Positions 4,580 through 62,689 of a DNA stretch of 64,000 bases are shown here, piece by piece (positions within the stretch are counted from its first letter, which is position 1; each line of letters starts with the position of its first letter). This DNA comes from Rhina ancylostomus (taxonomy: Eukaryota). The notes under the pieces were generated by a model. It saw nothing but the letters and a program-made list of their open reading frames with translations, was not told where the DNA came from and did no database searches. Location: assembly GCA_030265395.1 (NCBI GenBank), contig JARFYF010000053.1:16331690-16395689 (forward strand), in the 5' to 3' direction. Both the position numbers and the translations under genes were made by a program.

Positions 4580-5680
4580 AGTGGGCTGAACTGATATAAA
4601 TGGAAGTTAGTGTGGAAAAGTGTGATGTCATCTACTTTGGACCTTAAAGATAGATCAAGGCATGGTTCAAATAGTGAGAGCATTGGAATGGCGGAGAAGC
4701 AGAGTGGTTTTGAGATTCATGTACAAAACTTACTAAATGCTTGTGAATAGGTGCAACAGGTAATTTCATAAGAGACCTCAGATGCTGAAATCTAGAGCAA
4801 AAATTGAATTGCTGAAGGAACTCAGCGAGTCGAGCAGCACTTGTGGAGGGAAAGGAATTATCATCGTTTCAGGTTGTAGCAAAGTCCTGATGCAAGGTCT
4901 CAAGCCGAAATGTTGGCACTTCCTTTTCCTCCACAGATGCTGCTTGACCCACTGACTTCCTCCAGCAACTTGTTTTTTTACAATTGATTTGATGGCCTAG
5001 TGATTTATTTTTCCTTTTCCCTCCTGCAAGCCAAATATAAAAGAATGAGTGAAATGTTACAAGTTTATGGGCCTGTTTTTATACGAAANNNNNNNNNNNN
5101 NNNNNNNNNNNNNNNNNNNNNNNNNNNNNNNNNNNNNNNNNNNNNNNNNNNNNNNNNNNNNNNNNNNNNNNNNNNNNNNNNNNNNNNNTGTGGAGTTTTG
5201 CATTCAGTTCTGGGCTGCAGACTGTGGAAATGGTACATTGGACCTGGAGGAGATGTAGCACAGATTCACGAACGGGGAACGGGTTCACAATGTGTATTCC
5301 CCTTAAACATAAAAAATTAATGGTTAATCTAATTGAGGAGTTTAAGATGTTCATAGAAATTAGTGAAATGGATTAAGAGAAAAATTTTCCTCTGACGGGA
5401 GAATCTAGAACAAAGGGCATGATCTTATATGTTGAATTAAGCTGCTTAAAATTGATCCAGGGAGCACTTCTTTATACAAAATAGTAGAAATCTTTTCCTC
5501 CAGAAGTTAAAGGCTGAAGTTTGATTGACAGTCTCAAACTTATGACTGATAATGCTTTTGCTAGTTTTGAGGGTATTAAATGGCCTTAAAACTGAGGTGA
5601 GCAAATGGCGTTAGAGTACAGTCATCCATGGTCAATTTGAATAGTGCTGGGGTGCTGAAAGGCTTACAGCTGTTCCTATG
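4580..5680 (+). mobile_element. Decayed CR1 LINE (contains the palindromic insert)
   Basis: GAAAAGTGTGATGTCATCTACTTTGG, GGAGTTTTGCATTCAGTTCTGGGC (EYCVQFW) and a CR1 3' UTR. Confidence 0.65.
4772..4980. mobile_element. Palindromic short element with a degenerate hammerhead core, nested in CR1
   Basis: Inverted arms at about 4797-4876 and 4900-4979. The + strand core GTC-CTGATGC-AAGGTCTCAAGCC-GAAA-TG-TT-GGC is at 4884-4917. Confidence 0.7.
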
Positions 5681-19594: not shown

Positions 19595-19717
19595 TGGCGG
19601 ATGCTTAGAAATGTGAAATAAACGCAGAAAATGCTGGGAACACTCAGCAGGTCAGGTACCATCTGTGGAGAGAGAAACACAGTTAACCTTTCGGGTTAAT
19701 AACCTTTCATCAGAACT
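19595..19717 (-). mobile_element. Single-arm short element of the same family with a hammerhead motif
   Basis: The minus strand reads AGTT-CTGATGA-AA-GGTT-ATT-AACC-C-GAAA-GG-TT-AACT, followed by the family tail CTCCACAGATG..CCTGACCTGCTGAGTGTTCCCAGCATTTTCTG. Confidence 0.75.
19681..19717 (-). ncRNA. Minimal type I hammerhead ribozyme motif (best-preserved copy)
   Basis: Core CUGAUGA and GAAA are intact. Stem I is AGUU/AACU, stem II is GGUU/AACC, the cleavage site is UU and helix III is essentially absent. Activity is untested. Confidence 0.6.
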
Positions 19718-22700
19718 TTGAACAGAAAATATTTTACAACTAACAAGACGTTCTAGTAAAAATGTGTAATATTTTCGGGTGCACTCATTGACCTTAACCT
19801 TCAAGCCCAGAACGTGACTGCTTTTCTGGAACGGCAGAGGTGCGTTAGTCATCAGTACAACAGTAACAACTGCAATTAACATTTATATCGCGAACGGACC
19901 AAGGCAGTTCTAGTGTTTTCTGGCGGCAACTCCTTCTAATTGACGTTGATCTTAATTTACAATGTATCTTCAAGGTGTTTCTATGTTTAATTGAAACACA
20001 TTTGTGCTCCACGTCAGATGAAACGTCAAATGACGAGACCCAAGACAGTTTACAAGGAACATAATTGCCCCCATAAAATGACCCAGATTACACATTGTTT
20101 AAACAATTAATCTGTCGGTTTGTTCGGCACAATTGTAAAATCTTAAAATCTTGCAAATTTTTCATTTACATAAAGTCTTTCACAACCTCGGGAGCTGTCA
20201 AAGCTGCTGGAAAACATATTATGAACCCTAGTCATCATTCTAACACGACATTAAATGTGCCAGTTTGATCGGGACGTAATAAAAGTCAAAGATAAGTAAT
20301 GGTAGTCTGTCCCCTCCCTCTCTCCCAGAACTCCCGTTCTGGCATCCAGCGAAATTTCGACCTTTCCGGTTGTATTTTCTCTCAAATTTATCTCCCATTT
20401 GAGAGTTCCAAGATGTTTGTATTTTATAAAGCAAGATCTCATTATCAGGATTTAACTGAGTCAAGGGTATTGAACAGTGTGCAGTTCCCACTGAACCATT
20501 GTTCCCATTAACCTCAGTCCCCACACTCCCTCTGCGAAATCGGAACCTGTTACCCATTTCCAAATTCTGCAGCGATTTTAAAATTAAATCATGCCCTTTC
20601 TCTTTCTCTATCCCGCTCCGAAATATTTATTTGGTATAAACGTGGTACCATTTTCCATTAAAAGGATGTATTTATATATTTCTAGCTGCAGCCTCGTCTC
20701 TTCAGATTTAAAATTAAAATCGAATTATGTCTAAAGAAGTGCCAGATTTATTTCTAAACTAAAGCACGAATACTTTACATTAAAATGTCCATCTTGAGTT
20801 ATTCGCAATTATTTGTAGTTTGCAAATACAAGCTAACATTTTGCCGGACAGGTTAAACCTTAGCGAACACTTGAACCCTCGTTAACAATGCTCCCTTGAT
20901 CCGAATGAAGCCAATGTCGCCCATCTACATCCCCACCCAGCCGAATAATGTCTCCAGTATTTTCAAATATTAAGAAATCCTGAACGCGCGGGTAAAAATA
21001 TTTTGTAGACGTAAATGCATGAATACTTAAATGGTAAATGTATCCTAACAATTGATAGAAGAGGCAATAGTATGTGTGGAATCAATATTTTTGAAACCGG
21101 ATATCTGGATCAAATACGTTCGGAATAGTCCGAGGAATTAACCGGATATGTAAATTCAATAAAATGTATCAAGTTCAGTTTTTATAGAACAAGGGGTATC
21201 AGCAGTTGAATGGAACCGGAATGAACAACTGAAGTCATGCAGTTCAAATGTACCAAACAACGGGACGGATTGGAATAGTTGCACTTGATACTTTGCTGAG
21301 TAATTGTAATCCGTGAAAAAATGGGAAAAAAAGTAATTTTACTCTAGTTCACCCCATCCGCAGGAATGAAATCCCCCTCTAACGGCGTTAATCCCCCTCG
21401 TACTGGTCTTTAATAGATAAACCTTTCAACTTTCGCTGGATGTTACTCATTCAGCTATATCTAGGAATTTAGCGGAGTTTGGGCAATGTCAGTCACCATT
21501 GGTATTCTATCAAGTATCGCTTTGCTTTCGTTTTAAGGTTATTGCTAATATAGGGTTAATTCTGGTTCCGTTTTCTGAAACGAAGATTTGGTTTAGTAAC
21601 TGGCTGTCATCCTGGGGGGAGTTATCATAAAAGTAGAGCTGGAGGGGAGGAGGACGTTAAGCTCCTGCAGTCTATGTCTGCTGCTTCCAAGAGAAATCTA
21701 TCCTCTCTTCTTTCTATATGAATCCACATTCTTCCCCTTTCAAATTTTTGTGCAATGTTTGTTGAGGGGGAAACTGTTTCCATCATCTTCACTCATCACT
21801 GCATTCATAATCCTAATCATTCATGAGCTACAGTACTTCACCTCTTTCACAGTCCCTCCTATTCCATTACAAACCACCCTAAAACTGTACCTTCTGGCAT
21901 TTAATTTTAAAAAATGTCCTATAATATGCTAGTTAGCAAAATTGAAACCCATACAATAAAAAAGTCAGTCGTGTCAATGACACAAAATAGGCTGGAATAG
22001 GAAAGATTTAGGTTTCATCCACTGCAAACGTTTCTCTTTATTAATTCTGTTTTGTTTGCTAGCCCTCTCTGGTCAAAGAAAACAGACCCCAGCCTCTCCA
22101 AATTAACCACAGAAATGTAGTTTCATTTCTGGAACCATTTTAGAAAATCTCTTTTTTATGTTCCCCAAAGCCTTTCTGAAGACTGATATTCAGAAATAGA
22201 GACTACTCTCTCTGCAACCTATGCAGTCTTTTGGTTTTATCTGCCTTTGGCACCTGTTGGCTCTATTTATGAAGCCTGTAATTTCATATATATTTAGGAA
22301 TATCAAACACTTGTGGGGAACAACCCTCAATCTTACTCTTCTTGGATCTTTAAACTATTTAAAGCTATTCAATTTACCCATTAAAACTATTCAATTTATA
22401 CCCTTTAAGACTACTCGATTTAATTCATACTGTCTCTCTTCATTTTTTCTACTACATGTTTCACTGTAAACCTTACAATGGTGAATCTCATCTGCAATAT
22501 ATCCACCCATCCCACCAGCTCTCCCAGGTCAATATTATTTTTCCCCACTGTTCAATACACTTCTGAGCAAAGCTTCTCCATATTTCAAAATTGTACTTTA
22601 TACCTACTCTCTCTGCAACCTATGCAGTCTTTCAGTTTTATCTGCCTTTGGCACCTGTTGGGTCTATTTATGAAGCCTTTATAAAGTCCAATTGACTATG

Positions 22701-24469: not shown

Positions 24470-25700
24470 CCCTTCCAAAATTTTGAAGGAAGTGTGTGAG
24501 GATATTACAGATGTTCTAACTACAATCTTCCAAAATTATCCTAATTCATACATGGTTTCTTTAGATTAGAGAATTGAGCACATCATCTGCCTCTTAAGAA
24601 AAGTAAGTTGTAATTCAACAAAAAGTAAGTTGCAGCTTACAAATAATAGGCTTCCCAAATGGTTTGCTGGGCTTGTAGTTAAAAAACAAAGACACCACAA
24701 GGTTACATTATAAAATGTAGCATAAAATCTATTAATGGGAAATTACCAGAGTGTATAGTTTTGGGTAGATTGTCTGAATACATGAAAATGTTCAGCTGAT
24801 CTGAAGGAACCAGCATAGATTTGTAAAAGAATAGGTCATGCCTGAAAAAATTGAGTTTTCAAGTAGTAACTAAGTTGGTAGAAAGGCAGAATCTATGATT
24901 GTCATGTATGTAGACTTTTATGCAGCCATTTGATAAAGTCCCTATGAATACAGGCAAATGTGTGGTTTTTGAATTTGGACTAAAAAAGGATAGAGCAAAA
25001 TAGTTTCTAATGAGGGAAAAGTTGGAAGTTATGGAGTTCCAAAGAAATTTGGGTACTTGTACATGATTATTTTAATGCCATGGACAAGGATAGAAGATAA
25101 TCAAAAGGCCAAATAGACAGAAGTACAAGAGCATAGGATAAAATAAAAATGCTGGAAATACTCAACAGGTCAGGCTACATATGTAGGAAGAGAAACAAAG
25201 TTAATGTTTCAGGTCAATGACCCCTCTATCAGCAGTACTTAGCATTATACCTTGGGAAATATTTTAGTCTTGGAGGTATGTGACAAAGATTTACTAAAAT
25301 GCCTCCTGAATGGCAATGGTTATGTAATGAGCAGTGTTTATACAATCTATATCTGCATTCCCTGGGATTTAGAATGTAAAGAACTGAGGAATTGATGGAT
25401 TGGGTGGAGAGAAATTATTCCCTCCACCTGGGATGCCTGGAACCAGCTAGCATAGCCTAAATAAGGCCTAAGGTTTTCAAGAGTGAAATTCATAAACAGT
25501 TCTACAAACAGGAGATGGTTAAAAGTATGAAACTCTCCTCCAGTAACTGGGAAGAATGATGTCAATTGTTAATTTTAAACCTGAGATTGATAACGTTCTT
25601 GTCAACCAAAAATATTGCATTAATGTATGTCATGGATCAATGATGATCTCATTAAGTAATAGAAGATCAAAGACTCAATTCCTGTTCTATGTTCTTATGT
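24470..25700 (+). mobile_element. Decayed CR1 LINE fragments
   Basis: ILKEV..TIFQN, QH..RSC, YVDF..FDKVP-like segments, followed by a CR1-type 3' end. Confidence 0.6.
25140..25233 (-). mobile_element. Degenerate copy of the hammerhead-bearing short element
   Basis: AAAATGCTGGAAATACTCAACAGGTCAGGC...GTTAATGTTTCAGGTCAATGACCCCTCTATCAG. Confidence 0.65.
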
Positions 25701-27901: not shown

Positions 27902-28223
27902 ATGAAACATCAGCACGACAGTGGCGAACTGATCATGGAGTCCCGGGTCTGTTTACCGTTCCGCACCTCTTCCAGCCAGTCTCACGCAGACCCGGAGCCC
28001 GATGTTATGGCCTTTTATCCCCGTGACAAACTTCACAGCGCGGCCGGCAGCCGGAGCATCTGCGGCAACTCCCGAGCCGACAGAGTTCCAGGGGCCCGTT
28101 GCGATTACTTGTACGTCGATGGCCATCGCAGGTCGGCAGCGGGGAACCCACCCAAGTACTTGGAGAGTGTCGAAGGACATCGGCCCGGGTCGTTAAATGG
28201 GGAGGTGAATGCCAGCCCCGAGG
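27902..28223 (+). CDS. ALX3: Alx homeobox gene, coding exon 1 (start at ATG 27902 or, more likely, ATG 27935)
   Basis: GC/CpG-rich ORF MKHQHDSGELIMESRVCLPFR...PPKYLESVEGHRPGSLNGEVNASPE ends at a consensus donor GAGG|GTGAGT (intron starts 28224, phase 1). MESRVCLPFR and PPKYLE..SLNG resemble the human ALX3 N-terminal motifs MDPEHCAPFR and PPAKYLQD..ALNG (from memory). The phase matches exon 2. Confidence 0.8.
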
Positions 28224-31113
28224 GTGAGTGTTGCCTACGGAAAAAGTTTGCGCTGAGAGCTTCTCGTCGTAGGTGAATTATAATTGATGTAAAACGAAAT
28301 TCTGAATTCCGCTGCGGATGCTAGAAGTCTGGAGGTCGACTGGGCACACTGGAAATTGCCAGACAGTTATGATTAGTTAGACCAGTACCAGATTCAAATT
28401 CAGATTAGTTTATTGTTATATACAGCAGGGTGCAATGAAATTCCTTGCTGGCGTAAAGCTCACCGAGTAAAGAGTGTACATGGTAATAATAAATACTGCA
28501 GTGCCGGATTCATTAAAGATTGGCTGCATCAGTTGTGAAAACAAGGAAATCGCTGTTGCAGGAGCATGGATCCGAGCGTTAATTTCGTTTGTTTACAAAC
28601 TGTGCGTCCAGTCGAACTGTGGTCCTGGTTCTGTCATTCACCCGAATGCAAACTGGAGTAGGTGGACGAGGATATTTCTTAAACGTAGAAATAGTATTTC
28701 TTTATGTTTGAGGTTGCAACCATTAGCCGAAAGCATTTTCCCCCTGGGACTGAGGTGATTAATTCCTGTTCCCGAGAGGAAGAGTTGCGTTGGACCGCTT
28801 ATGTCACTCGGGAATCGTCAATCCATAACTCTAATGTGCCAGGTCTAGAACTTCACCCTGACTCAATGCAGTTTCAAACTTAAACAAACATATTTGATTT
28901 TGCAGAGATTGCGTTCATTATGTCGGTTTTTACATTGGAGCCGATGCTTTATGAATACAATCACGACGCACATCATCCGACCATGATCTCTCATCACAGA
29001 TGCCATTCGGCCAACGTGCCTGCCCTCGCCCATTGGCAGAGGCATCCATCTGGGATCTTTTGCATCCCGCCGCCAAGGGAGCGGGTTCCGGCCTTTTGCT
29101 CTTTGGTTTGGTTTTCAATCAGATTGAATATCTCATAGTTTACAAAATCGATTACTCCGTAAAGTTGAATTCTTGTTTTAAACCCCTGCCCGAGGTCCAT
29201 TTGGGGTTACGGTGTGATCAAAGGTCGCAGCACGGAGTCACCGACCAAAAACTGGGACAGCAAGAGTGAAGTTTTTACCTGTTTTGAATCATTGTGCGCA
29301 AACATAACACGGAGCGGAAAAATGTTAACGAGAGAGGTTTTCGCATATAACCGTGGAACCAATATTGTGTTCATATCTATTCTCTCCCAGTTGAGGATTA
29401 TTTCTTCCTCACTCTTTTGCCGGCGGGAACAGCAGGGAGTTTTATCTCAATCTTTGTTCCAATGTGCTCTGTAGAAAATAATCCCATCCTGTTAAATTAG
29501 CATGATCAGAAAGGCAAGGGAAATAAACGGTTGGGTTCCAATTCATCGGGTAGATCCACGTTAGCATTGCCACATTTAGTGTTTTACCTCAAATCACTAC
29601 ATCCATACATCCCTCTCCTCCCCCCACTGTGGTTTAGTATGGAGAAAATTACTTGGTTTGCAATAAATAAGAATTTTTGTAAGAATTCATTCGGCGTTTA
29701 CCGCTGGCATCTGTTATTTCAAAAGCAGTATTCCGTCTTGACCCAGTTTTCGGGCTCATTGGATTTGTCGAGAGTACAGTACACACTCCAAGGCGGAACA
29801 GGAGGGAAAATGTAGGTGTGGAAGATTTAACAATCAGGGCATGAAAAATCCAGGATTGTTTAGGATGAGGATATTAATTCTCGTGATATAAAGAACATTT
29901 ATTCCTATGGATTTGCGCGGACTATTTCCAAGAGCACTTACATTAATCCCATTTCCCTGTTCTCCTCCCCACTCACCACCAGTTTCCTGCAATTGTTTTC
30001 TCCAGTATTTATCCAAGCTACTGTTGAATCTACATCTATCGCCCTCTGAGGCAATGCGTTGTAAATCCTAACCATTCCCGGTGGAAAACGTGCTTCCACC
30101 TGTCACCAGTCATTTTTTTTGGGGAAACTATTTCCCTTTTTCCATGATTTTCAATGCCCCAACAAATCTTACTTTTTTTATCTCCCTAAGGAGAACAATC
30201 CCAACGTCGGTTAACTATAATTCACCTTTCTTGGGGCCATTCTAGATTATTTTCAAATCTTCTCAAAAGCCAGAAGATCCTTCCTAAATATGGTATCTAG
30301 AATTGGGCAAGATTCTGCAACAAGGGCTAGAGTATTATTTTGAGTGGATTTGCCAAAGTATCCTGTCTTTTGTACTCAGTGCTTCTAGTTATGCCAACCT
30401 GATCCACTAACTTCCTAGTGCTTCCTAGTTTTCTAGCTTCTAATTATATGTATTAGAAATATGGCCTCTCTTCATTCTACCTTCCAAATGTATCACCCTG
30501 CACTTTCTGATGTTGAATATCATCTATCATGTGTCTGTCTGTGTTGATAACACCTGATTATGAAGTCTATTACTGTATTCCTCACCATTTCCTGCACTTC
30601 CAACTATTATTGGCATGGGGAATGCAAGCCACAAATTTCAAAATTTACATCCCATGTCATTAATGTATTTCAAAAGTGCAATGGTCCTAATTCAGGAAGT
30701 TCACTCTATCTACTCCCAGTTGAAAGAAAATTCATCCATTTACAGAAGTTATTTGTCTTCTATTTCTTATATCATTTTGTAAGTCTGTTGCTATTTCATC
30801 TTTTATTTCATTGGTTTTAATTTTGCAAACAAGCCTAAAATGTGTAACTTTTGAACGTCCATTAACACTGCAAACCCTTTCCGCTATATCATCAGAAAAA
30901 TCAATCAAGTTGGATAACATTGACAACTGTTTCATTTTTTGCAAATTGGTTGTTCCTTTCTATTTTAATTTATATTTCAAATTGTTCCTTCTAATTTTGA
31001 TCCTACTGTCAATTTTTAAAGCTGTTGTTATTATGACAATTTTGATGTGCTCCCTAGCATGAACATTCATCCACCTTCCCCTTGCTGCAATTTTAAACAT
31101 GCGAGTGTTCTTA

Positions 31114-31250
31114 CTTTATCAGTTCTGATGAAGGGTCATTAACCTGAAGTGTCAGCTCTGTTTCTCGCTCACCCAACCACCACCACCTCCCCACCCCAGG
31201 TGCTGCCTGACCTGCTGAGCACTCTAGCATCATCAGTTTTTTGTTCTTAT
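31114..31250 (+). mobile_element. Hammerhead-bearing short element in sense orientation in intron 1
   Basis: AGTT-CTGATGA-A-GGGTCATTAACCT-GAAG-TG-TC-AGCT at 31121-31157, then TGCTGCCTGACCTGCTGAGCACTCTAGCA. A short palindrome remnant CTTTATCAG-TT-CTGATGAAG is present. Confidence 0.7.
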
Positions 31251-32529: not shown

Positions 32530-32626
32530 TAAAAACTGGAAATCTGACATAGAACAGAAAATGCTGGAAGTGCTCAGCAGTTCAGGCAGCATCTGTGGAG
32601 AGAGAAACAGAGTCAAAGACCCTTCG
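32530..32626 (-). mobile_element. Same family, hammerhead mostly deleted
   Basis: CAGAAAATGCTGGAAGTGCTCAGCAGTTCAGGCAGCATCTGTGGAGAGAGAAACAGAGT..GACCCTTC. Confidence 0.65.
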
Positions 32627-33014
32627 TAAACAACCTAATTCCAGGCACAGTTATGCAGTTGTTCTCAGCCAGCACAGACAATAAGTTGATTTTTTCTTGA
32701 CCTTTCAAGACATTCCCTCTTTCCGCACAATAATATTATCCATATTCAAAACAGCTACCCCTCTTTTTTTTATTCCTTCCCATTCCTGAATAACACTTCC
32801 TCTTTTTTTCTGAGATAGGTCCCTGTTATCACCATTATGCTACACCTTACTTTATATTACAGTAAAATCAGCACAAAGTAGAGCTGATGGACAATGGTAT
32901 CAAGAGACTGAAGAGAAGATGGATAAATAGATGTGATATATAGATTGGGCTTGATCTAACTGAATGAAAGAGCAAGCTAGAAGGGTCTATGGGCTGTGCC
33001 TGTTGCTGTACAAG

Positions 33015-43127: not shown

Positions 43128-43245
43128 CATAGAAACAGGAAATACTGGAAACACTCAGCAGATCAGGCAGCATCTGTGGAAAGAGAAACTGTTTCAGGCC
43201 TGGGTCCCCTCAGCACATTTGCATATGCAGTTTGTTTTCTGATTT
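43128..43245 (-). mobile_element. Same family, degenerate copy
   Basis: AAATACTGGAAACACTCAGCAGATCAGGCAGCATCTGTGGAAAGAGAAACTGTTTCAGGCC. Confidence 0.6.
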
Positions 43246-56500: not shown

Positions 56501-57799
56501 TCTGAAGGCAAACTGAACTCTCAGTGCTTAGCCTAGGAAAAATCTGAAATTACTGTACCACCACAATTTCTTTAACCCAATGGTGCAACTTCCAATCACT
56601 TCTTCAGATTTTTGACCGCAGTATGGAAATGATAGCTTTCAATAAATTCTGAGGGTGTTGGAATCAAGTGCCTCCACAATAATTCCACAACCTTATTGAA
56701 TGATATATTGATTGTTTTAATAAATTAACTAGTATTGCATAGGTACCCAACTCTATTTCTATTTTTAAAAAGTGTTATTCTGGTTGCAGCTGGCTTTGTT
56801 CTGTTTGTTATCACTTATTTCTGCTTCTTATATAAGATTGTTAGTGCACAAAAAATCCCCTTTCCCCCCAAACTTCTCAATGTTCAAAATTACTATTCAA
56901 TTTTCCAATATATTCAGCTTGACTCTGGTCTGCCATTTTTCCAAACTCTGTTTGCACTCACTGGCCCCCACACTGAAGCTGAGACCTGCCTTTAGACTTG
57001 TGTTTTTTTTTTGACTCACTCAGTTTCACTTCTTATAATTTAGATTTTCACAGCCTCACATTTATGTTCCACTGTGGTATCTGTGTTCTATGTTTGATTA
57101 CAGGGTGAAGTGTAGAACATATTTGCCAAGACCCAGGAGCTCTAACAAACCTTCCTGTTTACCACACTAGCTCCTCCAGACTGACTTTGGAAGCTTTTGC
57201 AGACAATATAGTAATCTATAGAGAGCAGTCATGCTGTGTAAAGAGATGGCACCCATAAAGCATCAATTATTATTTTACAACCAATGCTGCATATACTACA
57301 CCTCCATTGTTAGATTCTCCAAAAAGTACTCTTTGCCAGTTTGAGCACACTCTGAGCATTTCTGGAGGTCAATGGGCACTTTCCAGTGAGTCTCAGAACT
57401 ACCTTGTAAAGTGTCCCATTTTGAACTGAGTGGTCTATTAAATGATAATGCAGATGTGCTCCTTGTTATTTTGTGGTTGCCAAGGGTCACCTTCTGCATC
57501 TGAGAGCTCCAGTTTATGTCAGGAAGATGTATTAGGTGCACATCTGACACTGAGAATCTCAGCGATGGATACCAACCCCAACTGTCAGACCAATTTTGTG
57601 ATTGGTGTGATTTTATCCAGAAATGATCGCTAATGCAGATGATTCTGCTTTATATCAGCATGCATCAGATAGTGTTTAGAAAAAGCACAATGCAATTCAA
57701 TTTCCAGGTAACAGTTCCTGCAATTTCACTAACCTGATTAAATAATTACCATTTTTTTTCCAAAAGATCTCAATTTATACTCACTTTATTTTTCATTAG

Positions 57800-58089
57800 C
57801 ACTGAATATCAAGGTTTCAAAATCCATTACCTATCAACTTATGGAATCTGATCGCCAAGATCCGCTGAAAATCTGTGGAAAACTGAAAGAGCCCCCAGGA
57901 AATGAGATTCCCAGTGAGAGGAGCGAGGGAGATACCGGCAGCAAAAACAAGAAGCGGCGGAACAGAACCACGTTCACTAGCTATCAGTTGGAGGAGCTGG
58001 AGAAAGTCTTTCAGAAAACACACTATCCAGATGTGTATGCTCGAGAACAGCTGGCTCTGGGCACTGAGCTCACTGAGGCCAGAGTTCAG
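57800..58089 (+). CDS. ALX3: Alx homeobox gene, coding exon 2 (linker plus homeodomain residues 1-46)
   Basis: Polypyrimidine acceptor TTTATTTTTCATTAG|C. G from exon 1 plus CA gives Ala, then an open frame [18 protein letters not shown]...[49 protein letters not shown]. The donor CAG|GTACGG falls at the canonical PRD-class intron between Q46 and V47. Alx family is near-certain; the paralog (ALX3 vs ALX4) is less so. Confidence 0.93.
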
Positions 58090-58376
58090 GTACGGTTGGA
58101 TGAAAGGTGATGCTTGAGGTTAGAGGCCGTAGTATACTTGGCCAACTCTTCTTAATAATCGCCACTGAGCTCTGTTTGGTGACAGGCAGCACATTGAGGC
58201 AGATATTTACTTAGATTGCTCGTGGTCTGTTGGCCAAAATTATACCAAAGTGACAACAGTGATTTGTAAACTTTTTTGTGTAGAAATCCCTGTGAAGAAC
58301 AGCAAAGTAAGAGATATTTTAATTTGTGAAGTATGGTGCCATATGCCTAAAGAAACAAGTGCTACTGGAGAAAGAT

Positions 58377-58598
58377 GGAGACACAAGAAAGACTGTAGAT
58401 GCTGGAGATCTGGAACACACAAAGCACTGGAGGAACTCAGCAAGTCAGGCAGCATCTATGGAGGGAAATGGACAGTCGATGTATCAGGCTGAGACCCTTC
58501 ATCAGTCCTGTTGAAGGGTCTTGGCCTGAAACGTCAATTGTTCATCTCCCTCCATAGATTCTGCCTGACATGCTGAGTTCCTCCAGCATTTTGTGTGT
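58377..58598. mobile_element. Near-complete palindromic double-hammerhead short element with an approximately 17-bp TSD, in intron 2
   Basis: 92-nt inverted arms at 58414-58505 and 58508-58599 with a 2-nt loop. Flanking direct repeat TGCTACTGGAGAAAGAT (58360-58376) / TGCTGTTGGAGAAAGAT (58599-58615). Confidence 0.85.
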
Positions 58599-60194
58599 TG
58601 CTGTTGGAGAAAGATCACAGGTAATGCAAGAAACTGATGAGCCAGGAATCTCATGAGATGGTCTCACAAATTCCCAAGTTTATACCCAGGTGGAATGAAC
58701 AAAGGGTATAATATAGAAGGAAGATGTTCAGCTTACCGTGACACTACTGGATCTCTGAAAGAACTCTCCAACTCCCACACATTAACATATAAAGCCACAC
58801 ATGTGGAAACCTATACAACAAGATATGGGTAGAGAAAAAGGCACATGTACAGTGCATGCAGAGAAACAGAAATATATACATCTCATACTAACACAACATG
58901 TACTGTATCAGATGCACTTGCTGGGACAGATGCAAACACATACATGTATAGAGACATGTGGTAAATGCATAGGAACAGGCACATTTAGAAATGGGCACAC
59001 CTGCATGTTTGAAGATAAATACATTCCTTCATAGGTAGGGGGATATATACACTGATGCTGCAAGGAGACAGACATATAACTTCTGCAGAGGTGAACCACT
59101 ATATGGACAAACATACATACTTTGATTCACACATTCATAAGCATAAAAGCAGATAAGAATTCCAGATACAATATCTCTTGCATTTAGTGGTGATCCATTC
59201 AGGATCTCACATTCACCCATTTGACAACCTTAGCTGTTTATCTACAGCTTTTGTGCTCTTATTGAAGTTACCCTGACAAATGGGAGAATGTCACGGAACC
59301 ACAGGACCACAGCACTCACTACTTTGTAGTACTTCTTTTGGTCAGTTGGTAACTGACCCAGTGAACTCTGAGCCAGAAATACATGTGCTGAAACTCCAGA
59401 ATTCAGACACATGGTCCAGTTTAACATTCGTTACAGAGTGGAGGAAGAGCTGACATTGTCCCTTGGATGAAAAATTAAACAATTGCTTTAACTGAGTGGC
59501 ACTGATTGCTGTGAAAGACACTGTGAAAAAAATTAGTAGAATATTCTCCTGATTTCCAAATCAATGCTTCTCCCTCAAAAAAGCCAAATTAAAATACAAG
59601 ATATCTCACTGTTAATTTTTGGGATATTGCTGATATTCAAAATGGGTGTCGTAGTTAACACCAGTAATGGATTGATATAATGGAATGCATGTGAATGACT
59701 TTGATGCATTTCAGAACGACTTTATGCTGTTAAATAAATACAATATATTTCACTTTTCAGCTGAGTTAATAATTTCTCTGGAAATGCCAGAGGAAACATT
59801 GTGGCACATCTGTGAAATCTGTACTCTGAGGCAAAAGTGATTTCCATCCCATCTGCACCTACTTTGCATCTACTTTGCACCTTGACATGAATATTTGAGT
59901 CATTCAACAAATCCAAATCACTTGAGAAATTTAGAATGCCTTTGTTATTGAGTTACAGAGTTATGTTGGGAATTGGTTTAATGAGTCTTGGTTTGTAATG
60001 ACAGATAAAACAATTCTTACTGCTGGCACCAATTGAAGGGAAAAAATAGATTTATGTACAACTATTCATGATTAATGAATACTGCTTCACTATAGTCACT
60101 ATTCTAAGGTAGTTAAATTCAGAGAGAGCAAAACCACACAAAACAGCATTAGGATTAGGAGAAATCTGTTTCTGTGCTCCCTTGGTATTGATCC

Positions 60195-60374: not shown

Positions 60375-62689
60375 NNNNNNNNNTTTGTAAACCTCTATCA
60401 AATCTCCCCTCATGCTTCTATGCTAGTTTGTGTTCTTGATGAGCAATTTCCTAAAGGATGGTTCAGGTGTCATCTTTTTCATTCTAAATAAAGTCCTAAC
60501 CTGTTCAATCTTACCCTGTAACTCAATTCCTGAAGACCCGACAACATTCTAGTAAATCTCCTCTGTCTTTCAATCTTACTGATATCCTTCCTATAGTTAG
60601 GTGACCAGAACTGCACACAATTTTGGGTATTTTTGGGTATTTTGTCATTTGAATACTTTCAATTTCTAAACCATTCTAAACCATTATTGTTTTTGTGTAC
60701 AGTTGAATTTAGTTACTCATATGTTTCATTTATTACATTATGTACTTCATTATATGCCTAAATTGGCTGCTTCATTTTCTGGAGAGGGTCTAAATTCCCT
60801 ATCCCACAGCCTCAGCTAATAGCTTCACATAGCTGAGCTCACTGATGTGAAACTCACACAGAGTGCAGATTAAGTTGCCACAGTCAATTTGTCAAATCAA
60901 ACTATCAGACACTAGTCTGAGTGGTTAGATTTAAGACTTTAATAGAAAGAGCAATCTGAGACAAATTCTAGGGCCATCAGCTAAAGTCTCCCTCTGATCA
61001 CACTTGGTCATCCTTTCTGTGACTATTTATATTCACTCAGTAACTCTGCCAAAGCAAAGAGCACAAACAACTGGAATCATCAACCTGCCTGGATCTGGTG
61101 CCAGAGGACAAAGGCCAGTCTATTAAACTTTCTCCATCGTTGTCACTAATCCCTATATTTTGTTTCATTAATTAGGTTTGGTTTNNNNNNNNNNNNNNNN
61201 NNNNNNNNNNNNNNNNNNNNNNNNNNNNNNNNNNNNNNNNNNNNNNNNNNNNNNNNNNNNNNNNNNNNNNNNNNNNNNNNNNNNTTCAAAACAGAAGAGC
61301 AAAATGGAGGAAACGAGAACGATATGGAAAATTTCATGAAGTTAGAAACCACTTTGCTGCAGCATATGACATCTCGATCTTCCCGAGACCAGAAAATTAT
61401 CCTCAGGTACAGCATTCTGGCATGGACTGGTACATTTAAATAGTAGAAAATTAATTGTGAATATACCATTTGAACAGATTATATGGTCAAGCCCCATGCC
61501 TATTAATTGTAAAGAGATTCAAATATATTTCTTGAGGTACTTTAAATGAAGGGCCTCAGCTGTTCCTATTTTATTGTTTAAATGTATTTCTTATTATACA
61601 TATATTTACAACCCCAATTGCCAAGTAACCTGATTTTAGATTCAAATAGCTTTTCCAGATTTTTTCATCTTGTGCGGGAATCATTTCAAGTAGGTGATTT
61701 ACCAGTCTATGTGAGTGCTATGTTACTCCCTCTGGGTACTGCAATCATTCCATGTAGGTGTCAGAAAAGGGAATAATTTGTCAGCTAATATTCATGTTCC
61801 TGTATACAACTTTACCTGCTCTACCCTACATTCACACAGTTGAACCTTGCCAAAGATGATCCCATGGCCAGCTAACCTCACCTGAACCCAACTAATGTAC
61901 CTATTATATCTTTAATAACTAGCTTCAGATCAGCTGATTATAATACATCATCAGGATGTTCAACAATAGACACCTGTTCATATTATGCTGTAATAAACCA
62001 TTGTCCAAAAGATCTGTTAACAAACTCAATGATATCAGTAAAGATAGGACCAATTTGTGAAATATTTCAGTTGTGCAAGATCCCTTTCCAATCCTGTTTC
62101 CCCTATGTTTTGATGTCGTGAATAAGAAGAAATTGTTTTGATGGGCAGGAGACTAAAAGAGAGATTTAAGGTTAGTTGGTAAAGGAAGAATGGAGAAGAT
62201 GAAATATATATTTTTATGCAGCAAATTGTTATAATCTGGAATGCTCTCAGAGTAAATGCAGATTCATTAATAACTTTCAAAAGGGAATTAAAAGAGTACT
62301 TCAAGTTCAGAAATTTTCAGAGTGCTGAGGAAAGAGCAGAGGAATGGAATGAAATGAAATGGGTGTTTTTTTTTTCAGAGCCAGCATAAGTACAATGGAT
62401 TGAATGTCTTCCAACGGGGCTGTATAATTCTCTTGTTCTGAAAACACATGAATATTATTTCTTCCTCTCCATCTTAATGAAATCATTGGATTTTACAGGA
62501 CAGAAGTTAATTTAGGCCCTCAGCCCACTGTTGGGTCTTTGAAATTGCTGCCCAATTTTATCCCAGCTTTTACCTCACAACCTTGCAAATTAATTCAAGT
62601 ACTTGACCATCGTGTCTGGCGCAGATATTGTGGCCCGAAGGGCCTGTTCGTGTGCTGTGCTGTTCTATGTTCTATGATGTCACTGTAGT

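Follow-up and report, generated by a model that had tools for sequence, protein, structure and literature searches.

A decayed head-to-head pair of Penelope-like element 3' ends in ALX3 intron 2 of Rhina ancylostomus, and the junctions of such pairs

Host gene and architecture of the unit

The window (the whole 64,000-nt stretch of Rhina ancylostomus contig JARFYF010000053.1 that was analysed) includes an exon encoding part of an aristaless-like homeodomain, the closest named relatives of which are ALX3 of rays (98% and 94%) and of a skate (88%). Mapping of ray ALX3 on the window gave three exons (27902-28225, about 57799-58089 and about 61287-61409), with an intron 1 of about 29.6 kb (28225-57799), an intron 2 of about 3.2 kb, and exon 4 outside the window. 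Because ray ALX3 maps to exons on both sides, the mirror-image unit described below sits in ALX3 intron 2; its direct repeat starts 270 nt, and the element itself 287 nt, downstream of the donor GT at 58090. The ALX3 homeodomain has Gly at window 58060, compared with Arg in ALX4 and in the paralog at locus L325 (LALG vs LAMR/LALR); the same Gly occurs in the closest ray protein (P0002), and the difference is thus lineage-wide.

The first-pass annotation described a palindrome with two 92-nt arms, flanked by a 17-bp direct repeat with 2 mismatches, and both descriptions hold: 58414-58505 and 58508-58599 are complementary at 78 of 92 positions (85%) with a spacing of 2 nt, and 58360-58376 and 58599-58615 are identical at 15 of 17. 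The left arm is, however, 37 nt longer than described; 58377-58413 is the tail of the element rather than flank, as identified by the alignment of 30 fetched loci. Family positions are numbered from the C of CAGTC in helix I (+1).

57799-58089 (start approximate), + strand: ALX3 exon 2, with the donor GT at 58090
58360-58376, + strand: target-site duplication, left copy; original target DNA, single in the empty site of organism K
58377-58505, - strand: left arm, the element 3' end; family +6 to about +137, tailed
58377-58413, - strand: Penelope "tail", a 37-nt optional 3' extension; on the left arm only, conserved across family copies
58474-58505, - strand: minimal hammerhead remnant; CUGAUGA intact, GAAA changed to GAUA, ACGU to ACAU, helix I 5' strand missing
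58503-58505, no strand: microhomology CAG (3 nt), common to both arms at the centre in the arm alignment
58503-58539, + strand (the pre-mRNA strand): minimal hammerhead remnant; core CUGAUGA changed to CUGUUGA (A to U), helix I 3' strand changed at 2 of 5 bases
58503-58602, + strand: right arm; family +1 to +102, without tail
58599-58615, + strand: target-site duplication (TSD), right copy, which overlaps the arm end by 4 nt at its start

Family numbering puts the start of the right arm at +1 and that of the left arm at +6, with CAG in common; the arms differ from the family consensus at 9 of 100 and 13 of 127 aligned positions, respectively. The first four nucleotides of the right repeat copy (TGCT) are also the consensus end of the arm and could belong to it, so the true duplication is 13-17 bp. 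The RNA of 58340-58640 is predicted to fold as a single long hairpin (-157.2 kcal/mol, z -13.7; none of 100 shuffles was equally stable). A contig from run X1 crosses the centre (58456-58586, with 50 and 78 letters on the two sides) with zero differences; because it reads through unchanged, an assembly error is an unlikely source of the palindrome, though X1 may be the source sample.

The proposal that the unit arrived in a single event is borne out by organism K, a distant relative that has an empty site with one repeat copy. Its contig matches 58293-58377 at 65 of 85 letters and continues with 30 letters of far flank, which align by eye with window 58617-58649 (24/30, one 3-nt gap). Contigs of organisms B, C, D and E pass from unique flank into the element for 12-27 nt, which fits filled sites at an overlap below the 31-letter bar for bridging; those of runs X14 and X18 gave no alignment near the site and do not bear on it. 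The insertion appears to be common to several related species; it is old, and its arms have since decayed by about 10% each.

A Penelope-like element family

The retroelement origin first suggested for the unit is supported, in that its arms are the 3' end of a Penelope-like element. There are 7071 candidate matches to the unit in the genome, of which the best 40 were scored and 30 loci fetched; all 30 are family copies, nearly all with the same two arms and tail, and the best 40 are only 80-88% identical to the ALX3 unit. In long copies, the arm is contiguous with a frame in which a CX4CxxC linker is accompanied by a GIY-YIG-like nuclease, two cysteines lying between the nuclease motifs (read in copy L032 and in the consensus of 20 long copies), and upstream of lone arms lies a pyrimidine-rich region followed by a decayed frame with a GIY-YIG-like nuclease. 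Endonuclease-bearing Penelope-like elements encode a telomerase-related reverse transcriptase (RT) upstream of the nuclease; the long-copy consensus covers the C-terminal part of the frame, with candidate RT and thumb motifs. Pfam gave no family in two decayed coding fragments, the nuclease region included. An inverted arm lies upstream of the nuclease region in 7 of 30 long loci (L112, L122, L126, L128, L138, L139 and L140). The linker reads C-X4-C-X2-C in the long-copy consensus and falls within the CX2-5CxxC pattern between RT and nuclease that defines Neptune/Nematis (PMC8557442); judged from the linker alone, the element would be of the Neptune type. We found no work on palindromic Neptune Penelope-like units of cartilaginous fishes in the openly accessible literature; the family may already be catalogued in Repbase or Dfam.

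Family density was estimated by sampling large scaffolds at round coordinates, in 140 stretches of 10 kb that amount to 1.225 Mb once N is left out. This sample held 242 arm matches and 27 head-to-head pairs vs 2 tail-to-tail pairs and 4 direct neighbours, or about 198 arms and 22 head-to-head pairs per Mb; provided that it is representative, the genome would hold roughly 400,000 arms and 50,000 pairs. The 3' ends of the arms are bimodal (near +85-105 and +120-140), and the tail is present on exactly one arm in 22 of the 27 pairs (both 3, neither 2; p 0.0015 vs one half). A TSD of 12-19 bp was called in 8 of the 27 pairs vs 1 of 206 shuffled flank pairs. Endonuclease-bearing Penelope-like elements characteristically insert with an inverted 5'-truncated pLTR, an optional 30-40-bp tail and a variable TSD (PMC8557442; PMC3846280), and the ray family shows the nuclease, the inverted 5'-truncated copy, the tail at one end and the variable TSD. 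That the ALX3 unit is a Penelope-like retroelement insertion is almost certain. It is an unexceptional insertion, in which two short 3'-end pieces of a very common Penelope-type element have decayed.

Other family members occur in the window. A second head-to-head unit of the same family (122-300) has a tailed right arm from about +46 and is flanked by a 15-bp repeat, as seen by eye; element coding fragments lie at 297-451 and 65-122. A third head-to-head unit (4765-4976) belongs to an older subfamily and has a tailed left arm. Five lone arms of older subfamilies lie at 19596-19721, 25146-25232, 31077-31231, 32536-32627 and 43131-43210.

Hammerhead motifs

Rfam, run on the whole window at E<=1, found no hammerhead and returned only chance microRNA-hairpin matches far below the gathering score, including a match to MIR6457 that stems from the third head-to-head unit; the minimal hammerheads were identified by hand reading. 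The family consensus is a minimal type I hammerhead, with CUGANGA, helix II, GAAA, a palindromic ACGU, the UH site and helix I. The claim that each strand of the unit carries a hammerhead motif stands insofar as both are genuine family motifs; neither is intact in the ALX3 copy, in which both ribozymes are mutated and predicted to be disabled. Sequestration of the ribozyme by the hairpin, also proposed in the first pass, is moot because the core is mutated. Both cores are kept in 8 of the 27 sampled pairs, as judged by eye. Single minimal hammerheads showed no in vitro cleavage even when intact, and in metazoan Penelope-like elements hammerheads occur in pairs 100-700 bp apart, on opposite strands in this description (PMC4209133).

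Where copying ends

Among 76 lone copies, the start lies at -2 to +7 in 32 and at +9 to +24 in 8, and the other 36 are spread across 1,500 nt upstream; an inverted stub escaped detection in at least 3 of the 32 boundary copies, and the calls for old subfamilies may be wrong. The pile-up of 5' ends near helix I is thus not specific to palindromes. No lone copy (0/76) starts at the predicted cleavage site (+33) or anywhere from +25 to +40, and ribozyme cleavage is rejected as the origin of the 5' ends. A set of 90 younger copies, selected on the core alone, comprised 14 that were masked, 36 in which the element extends further upstream, 27 classed as ending at the boundary (about 6 of which resemble short carry-overs) and 13 joined to an inverted arm.

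A hand count of the 100 copies listed, of 234 with purines upstream, found agreement with the element at the three bases ahead of TCC in 44, 66 and 81 copies, and the 5' ends consequently fall across +1 to +4. Ahead of the boundary, the sequence resembles a splice acceptor (CTTAT, its A at -27 in 24 of 36 copies, then a pyrimidine tract and CAG), and it also reads as an initiator (YYANWYY). In a subfamily that includes L193, L087 and L080, TATAT stands about 30 nt upstream of helix I, compared with CTTAT in the main family; this variant could help to separate the promoter reading from the branch-point reading. The bases before TCC also resemble exon ends (AG 56, G 81 and A 66 of the same 100 listed copies of 234, counted by hand), and a splice-related cause of the 5' ends may apply. 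A cap-templated G is weakly suggested (GAG 12, AAG 9, TAG 3, CAG 32) and is not claimed here. The pile-up may reflect a transcript start, a splice-related end or a polymerase stop; the promoter and intron of Penelope are treated in PMC2377424. Splicing to a shared upstream exon was considered and rejected, as no common sequence was found upstream of the boundary and target DNA adjoins the boundary in the TSD-anchored copies (L242, L259, L265, L279 and L312).

Junctions and the origin of the palindrome

The expectation that junctions are non-random holds: in 19 of the 27 sampled pairs, an arm starts within -5 to +7 of helix I. An exact search with the 24-nt junction of the ALX3 unit found only 3 loci, too few for statistics, and a shorter search was used, in which the junction recurs at 192 loci (at most 1 mismatch in 20) vs 1 for the reversed control. 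From this junction, 30 loci were fetched by junction alone, and 9 were dropped (an arm shorter than 60 nt, masked, or at a contig end). The remaining 21, which have the same junction and both arms of at least 60 nt, carry the tail on the left in 9, on the right in 9, on both sides in 1 and on neither in 2.

These counts bear on the fold-back first proposed for this unit, in which one strand would fold at its centre (CAG-TC-CTG, or CAG-GA-CTG on the other strand) and copy itself. Self-priming on an antisense template was proposed earlier by Arkhipova et al. 2013 (PMC3846280), the only literature that we found on head-to-head self-priming. On the strand with TC at the centre, fold-back would need the longer, tailed arm on the right, because the folding strand reads CAG-GA-CTG and its self-copy can be no longer than the strand itself. 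The recurrence of this junction at 192 loci is what fold-back would give, and 9 of the 18 one-tail loci have the predicted orientation; however, in the other 9, and in the ALX3 unit with its tail on the left, the longer arm is on the side that self-copying cannot reach, so the 9:9 split speaks against fold-back at this point in general and the ALX3 tail against it here. The junction of the ALX3 unit also occurs in just 1 of the 27 sampled pairs, the others joining at many positions from -18 to +64 (by eye), and folding of so short a hairpin (3-bp stem, 2-nt loop) is not predicted (the 17-nt centre as DNA has no predicted fold, 0 kcal/mol). Arms within a locus share derived bases slightly more than arms of different loci do (2.0% vs 1.1%, permutation p 0.0015), an excess that fits copying of one arm from the other but also a single source RNA. 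Three dropped loci (L204, L210 and L220) have a 15-16-nt stub on the side predicted by fold-back, and one (L209) has it on the other side; some fold-back may occur, given these loci. As the general origin of the pairs, self-priming fold-back is nonetheless improbable.

Whole-unit copying of the palindrome as a non-autonomous mini-element (MITE- or retrozyme-like) would account for the many loci that are alike in overall shape and for the recurrence of the same junction, but junctions, arm lengths and the side of the tail differ among loci, the 80-88% identity of the best 40 loci is no closer than decay from a common arm predicts, and long nuclease-bearing copies show the same architecture; we regard it as very unlikely. 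The uniform size, uniform junction and fixed TSD length of a MITE were not found, since junctions, arm lengths and TSD lengths vary. Nor were the tandem direct monomers of a non-LTR retrozyme, the unit being inverted, with 4 direct neighbours among 267 matches. Retrozymes are treated in bioRxiv 10.64898/2026.07.22.740005.

Two groups of loci are recorded as side observations. L204, L210, L220 and L209, in which one arm is a 14-16-nt stub at a centre near 1500, are candidates for fold-back or for an aborted second cDNA. In L071 (2053-2292) and L106 (1265-1465), the arms are separated by additional short duplications of core sequence, which suggests repeated priming before joining.

Proposed joining of two cDNAs

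We consider it probable that the palindrome arose from two cDNAs, one for each nick in the target, that ended near helix I and annealed by microhomology; this is the simplest account because of the 9:9 split in tail side, the one-tail rule and the properties of the Anolis protein. A lizard (Anolis) Penelope-like protein cuts and extends both strands in vitro, has two internal start sites with a spacing equal to the tail and with no start-site difference between strands, probably dimerizes according to prediction, and remains active when the ribozyme is dead (PMC11167929). The enzyme of the ray element would nick both target strands, and RNA would be copied from each nick. The tailed cDNA would begin at about +137, the outer initiation site, and its partner at about +102, the inner one; synthesis of both would stop near helix I. 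Pairing could then occur between the 3' CAG of the top-strand cDNA and the 3' CTG of the bottom-strand cDNA; the palindrome would result from fill-in, and the 13-17-bp duplication from the stagger of the nicks. In this account, the ribozyme would mark the end of copying, without a role in cutting or fold-back.

The joining of two cDNAs is itself a reconstruction, and fold-back from a short arm followed by a switch back to the RNA could also yield a left tail. We lean slightly towards a more specific form of the two-cDNA account, namely that a dimeric enzyme makes one cDNA per start site and strand, that these end at the 5' edge of helix I, set by a transcript start or a splice acceptor and not by the cleavage site, and are joined by microhomology, and that tens of thousands of ray insertions record this step. 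The Anolis data, being free of a start-site difference between strands, do not explain the preference for one tail.

Function and significance of the ALX3 copy

It is extremely unlikely that the hairpin has been retained for a function in ALX3 splicing or editing. Although the predicted hairpin is stable and lies 324 nt from the donor, one pair near a donor is unremarkable at about 22 pairs per Mb; and although the insertion appears common to several related species, organism K lacks the unit. The two arms differ at 9 of 67 non-CpG sites (13%), as much as is average in the family (14%), and selection for pairing is thus not apparent. In its favour, Penelope repeats are heavily edited in a lizard, with palindromic frog repeats likewise compared (PMC5625713), and use of the intronic hairpin by ADAR or Dicer, or its editing, is plausible, if not special at this density of pairs. 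No genomic A-to-G scar was seen in the sense-strand spectrum of 22 units (C>T 79, G>A 37, T>C 37, A>G 34). The ALX3 copy is likely to be inert except for forming an intronic RNA hairpin.

As a locus, the unit is ordinary, since a representative sample would imply roughly 50,000 such pairs; its main value is the junction statistic, which bears on Penelope-like integration. The origin of head-to-head repeats and one-sided tails in Penelope-like elements is stated to be unresolved in PMC8557442, and abundant short units allow a purely computational test of self-priming vs the joining of two cDNAs. If true, the more specific form of the two-cDNA account would supersede self-priming as the published model and would also explain why one tail is the rule. 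The many intronic hairpins that such units supply may underlie some of the RNA editing in rays, and the presence or absence of a unit can serve as a marker in ray phylogeny.

Comparison with known systems

The family consensus resembles the minimal type I hammerheads of PMC4209133, which have a 5-bp helix I, a helix II with an unpaired 5' base, and nothing in helix III beyond the palindromic ACGU. Unlike those hammerheads, both cores of the ALX3 copy are mutated, and its two motifs are on opposite strands, so no dimer can form within one RNA. The acceptor-like sequence upstream of the boundary is as in Drosophila virilis, in which the intron ends at the 5' edge of helix I (PMC4209133).

Published Penelope-like insertions are alike in being head-to-head, with a tail at one end, a short variable TSD and overlap at the junction, and in having a hammerhead in the pLTR with intron or promoter-like signals beside it (PMC8557442; PMC3846280); the 37-nt tail of the ALX3 unit matches the 30-40-bp tail of PMC8557442 and PMC11167929. 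Unlike published insertions, the ray unit comprises the last 100-137 nt on each side, without coding sequence and at very high copy number, and in contrast to the published idea of self-priming, the ray junction statistics argue against it.

L1 twin priming likewise involves two primers from the two target strands, an inversion and microhomology at the joint. L1 inverts a different part of the RNA, whereas the ray arms copy the same short segment, which gives a palindrome. Judged by title, the literature held no related work linking Penelope with twin priming.

A further likeness is to Poseidon of Anolis carolinensis, with its two tail-defining start sites, an ATG beside the ribozyme core, both strands cut and extended, and cleavage dispensable (PMC11167929). 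Anolis Poseidon, for which we saw no inverted products reported, belongs to the Penelope/Poseidon clade, whereas the ray element has the CX2-5CxxC linker of Neptune/Nematis.
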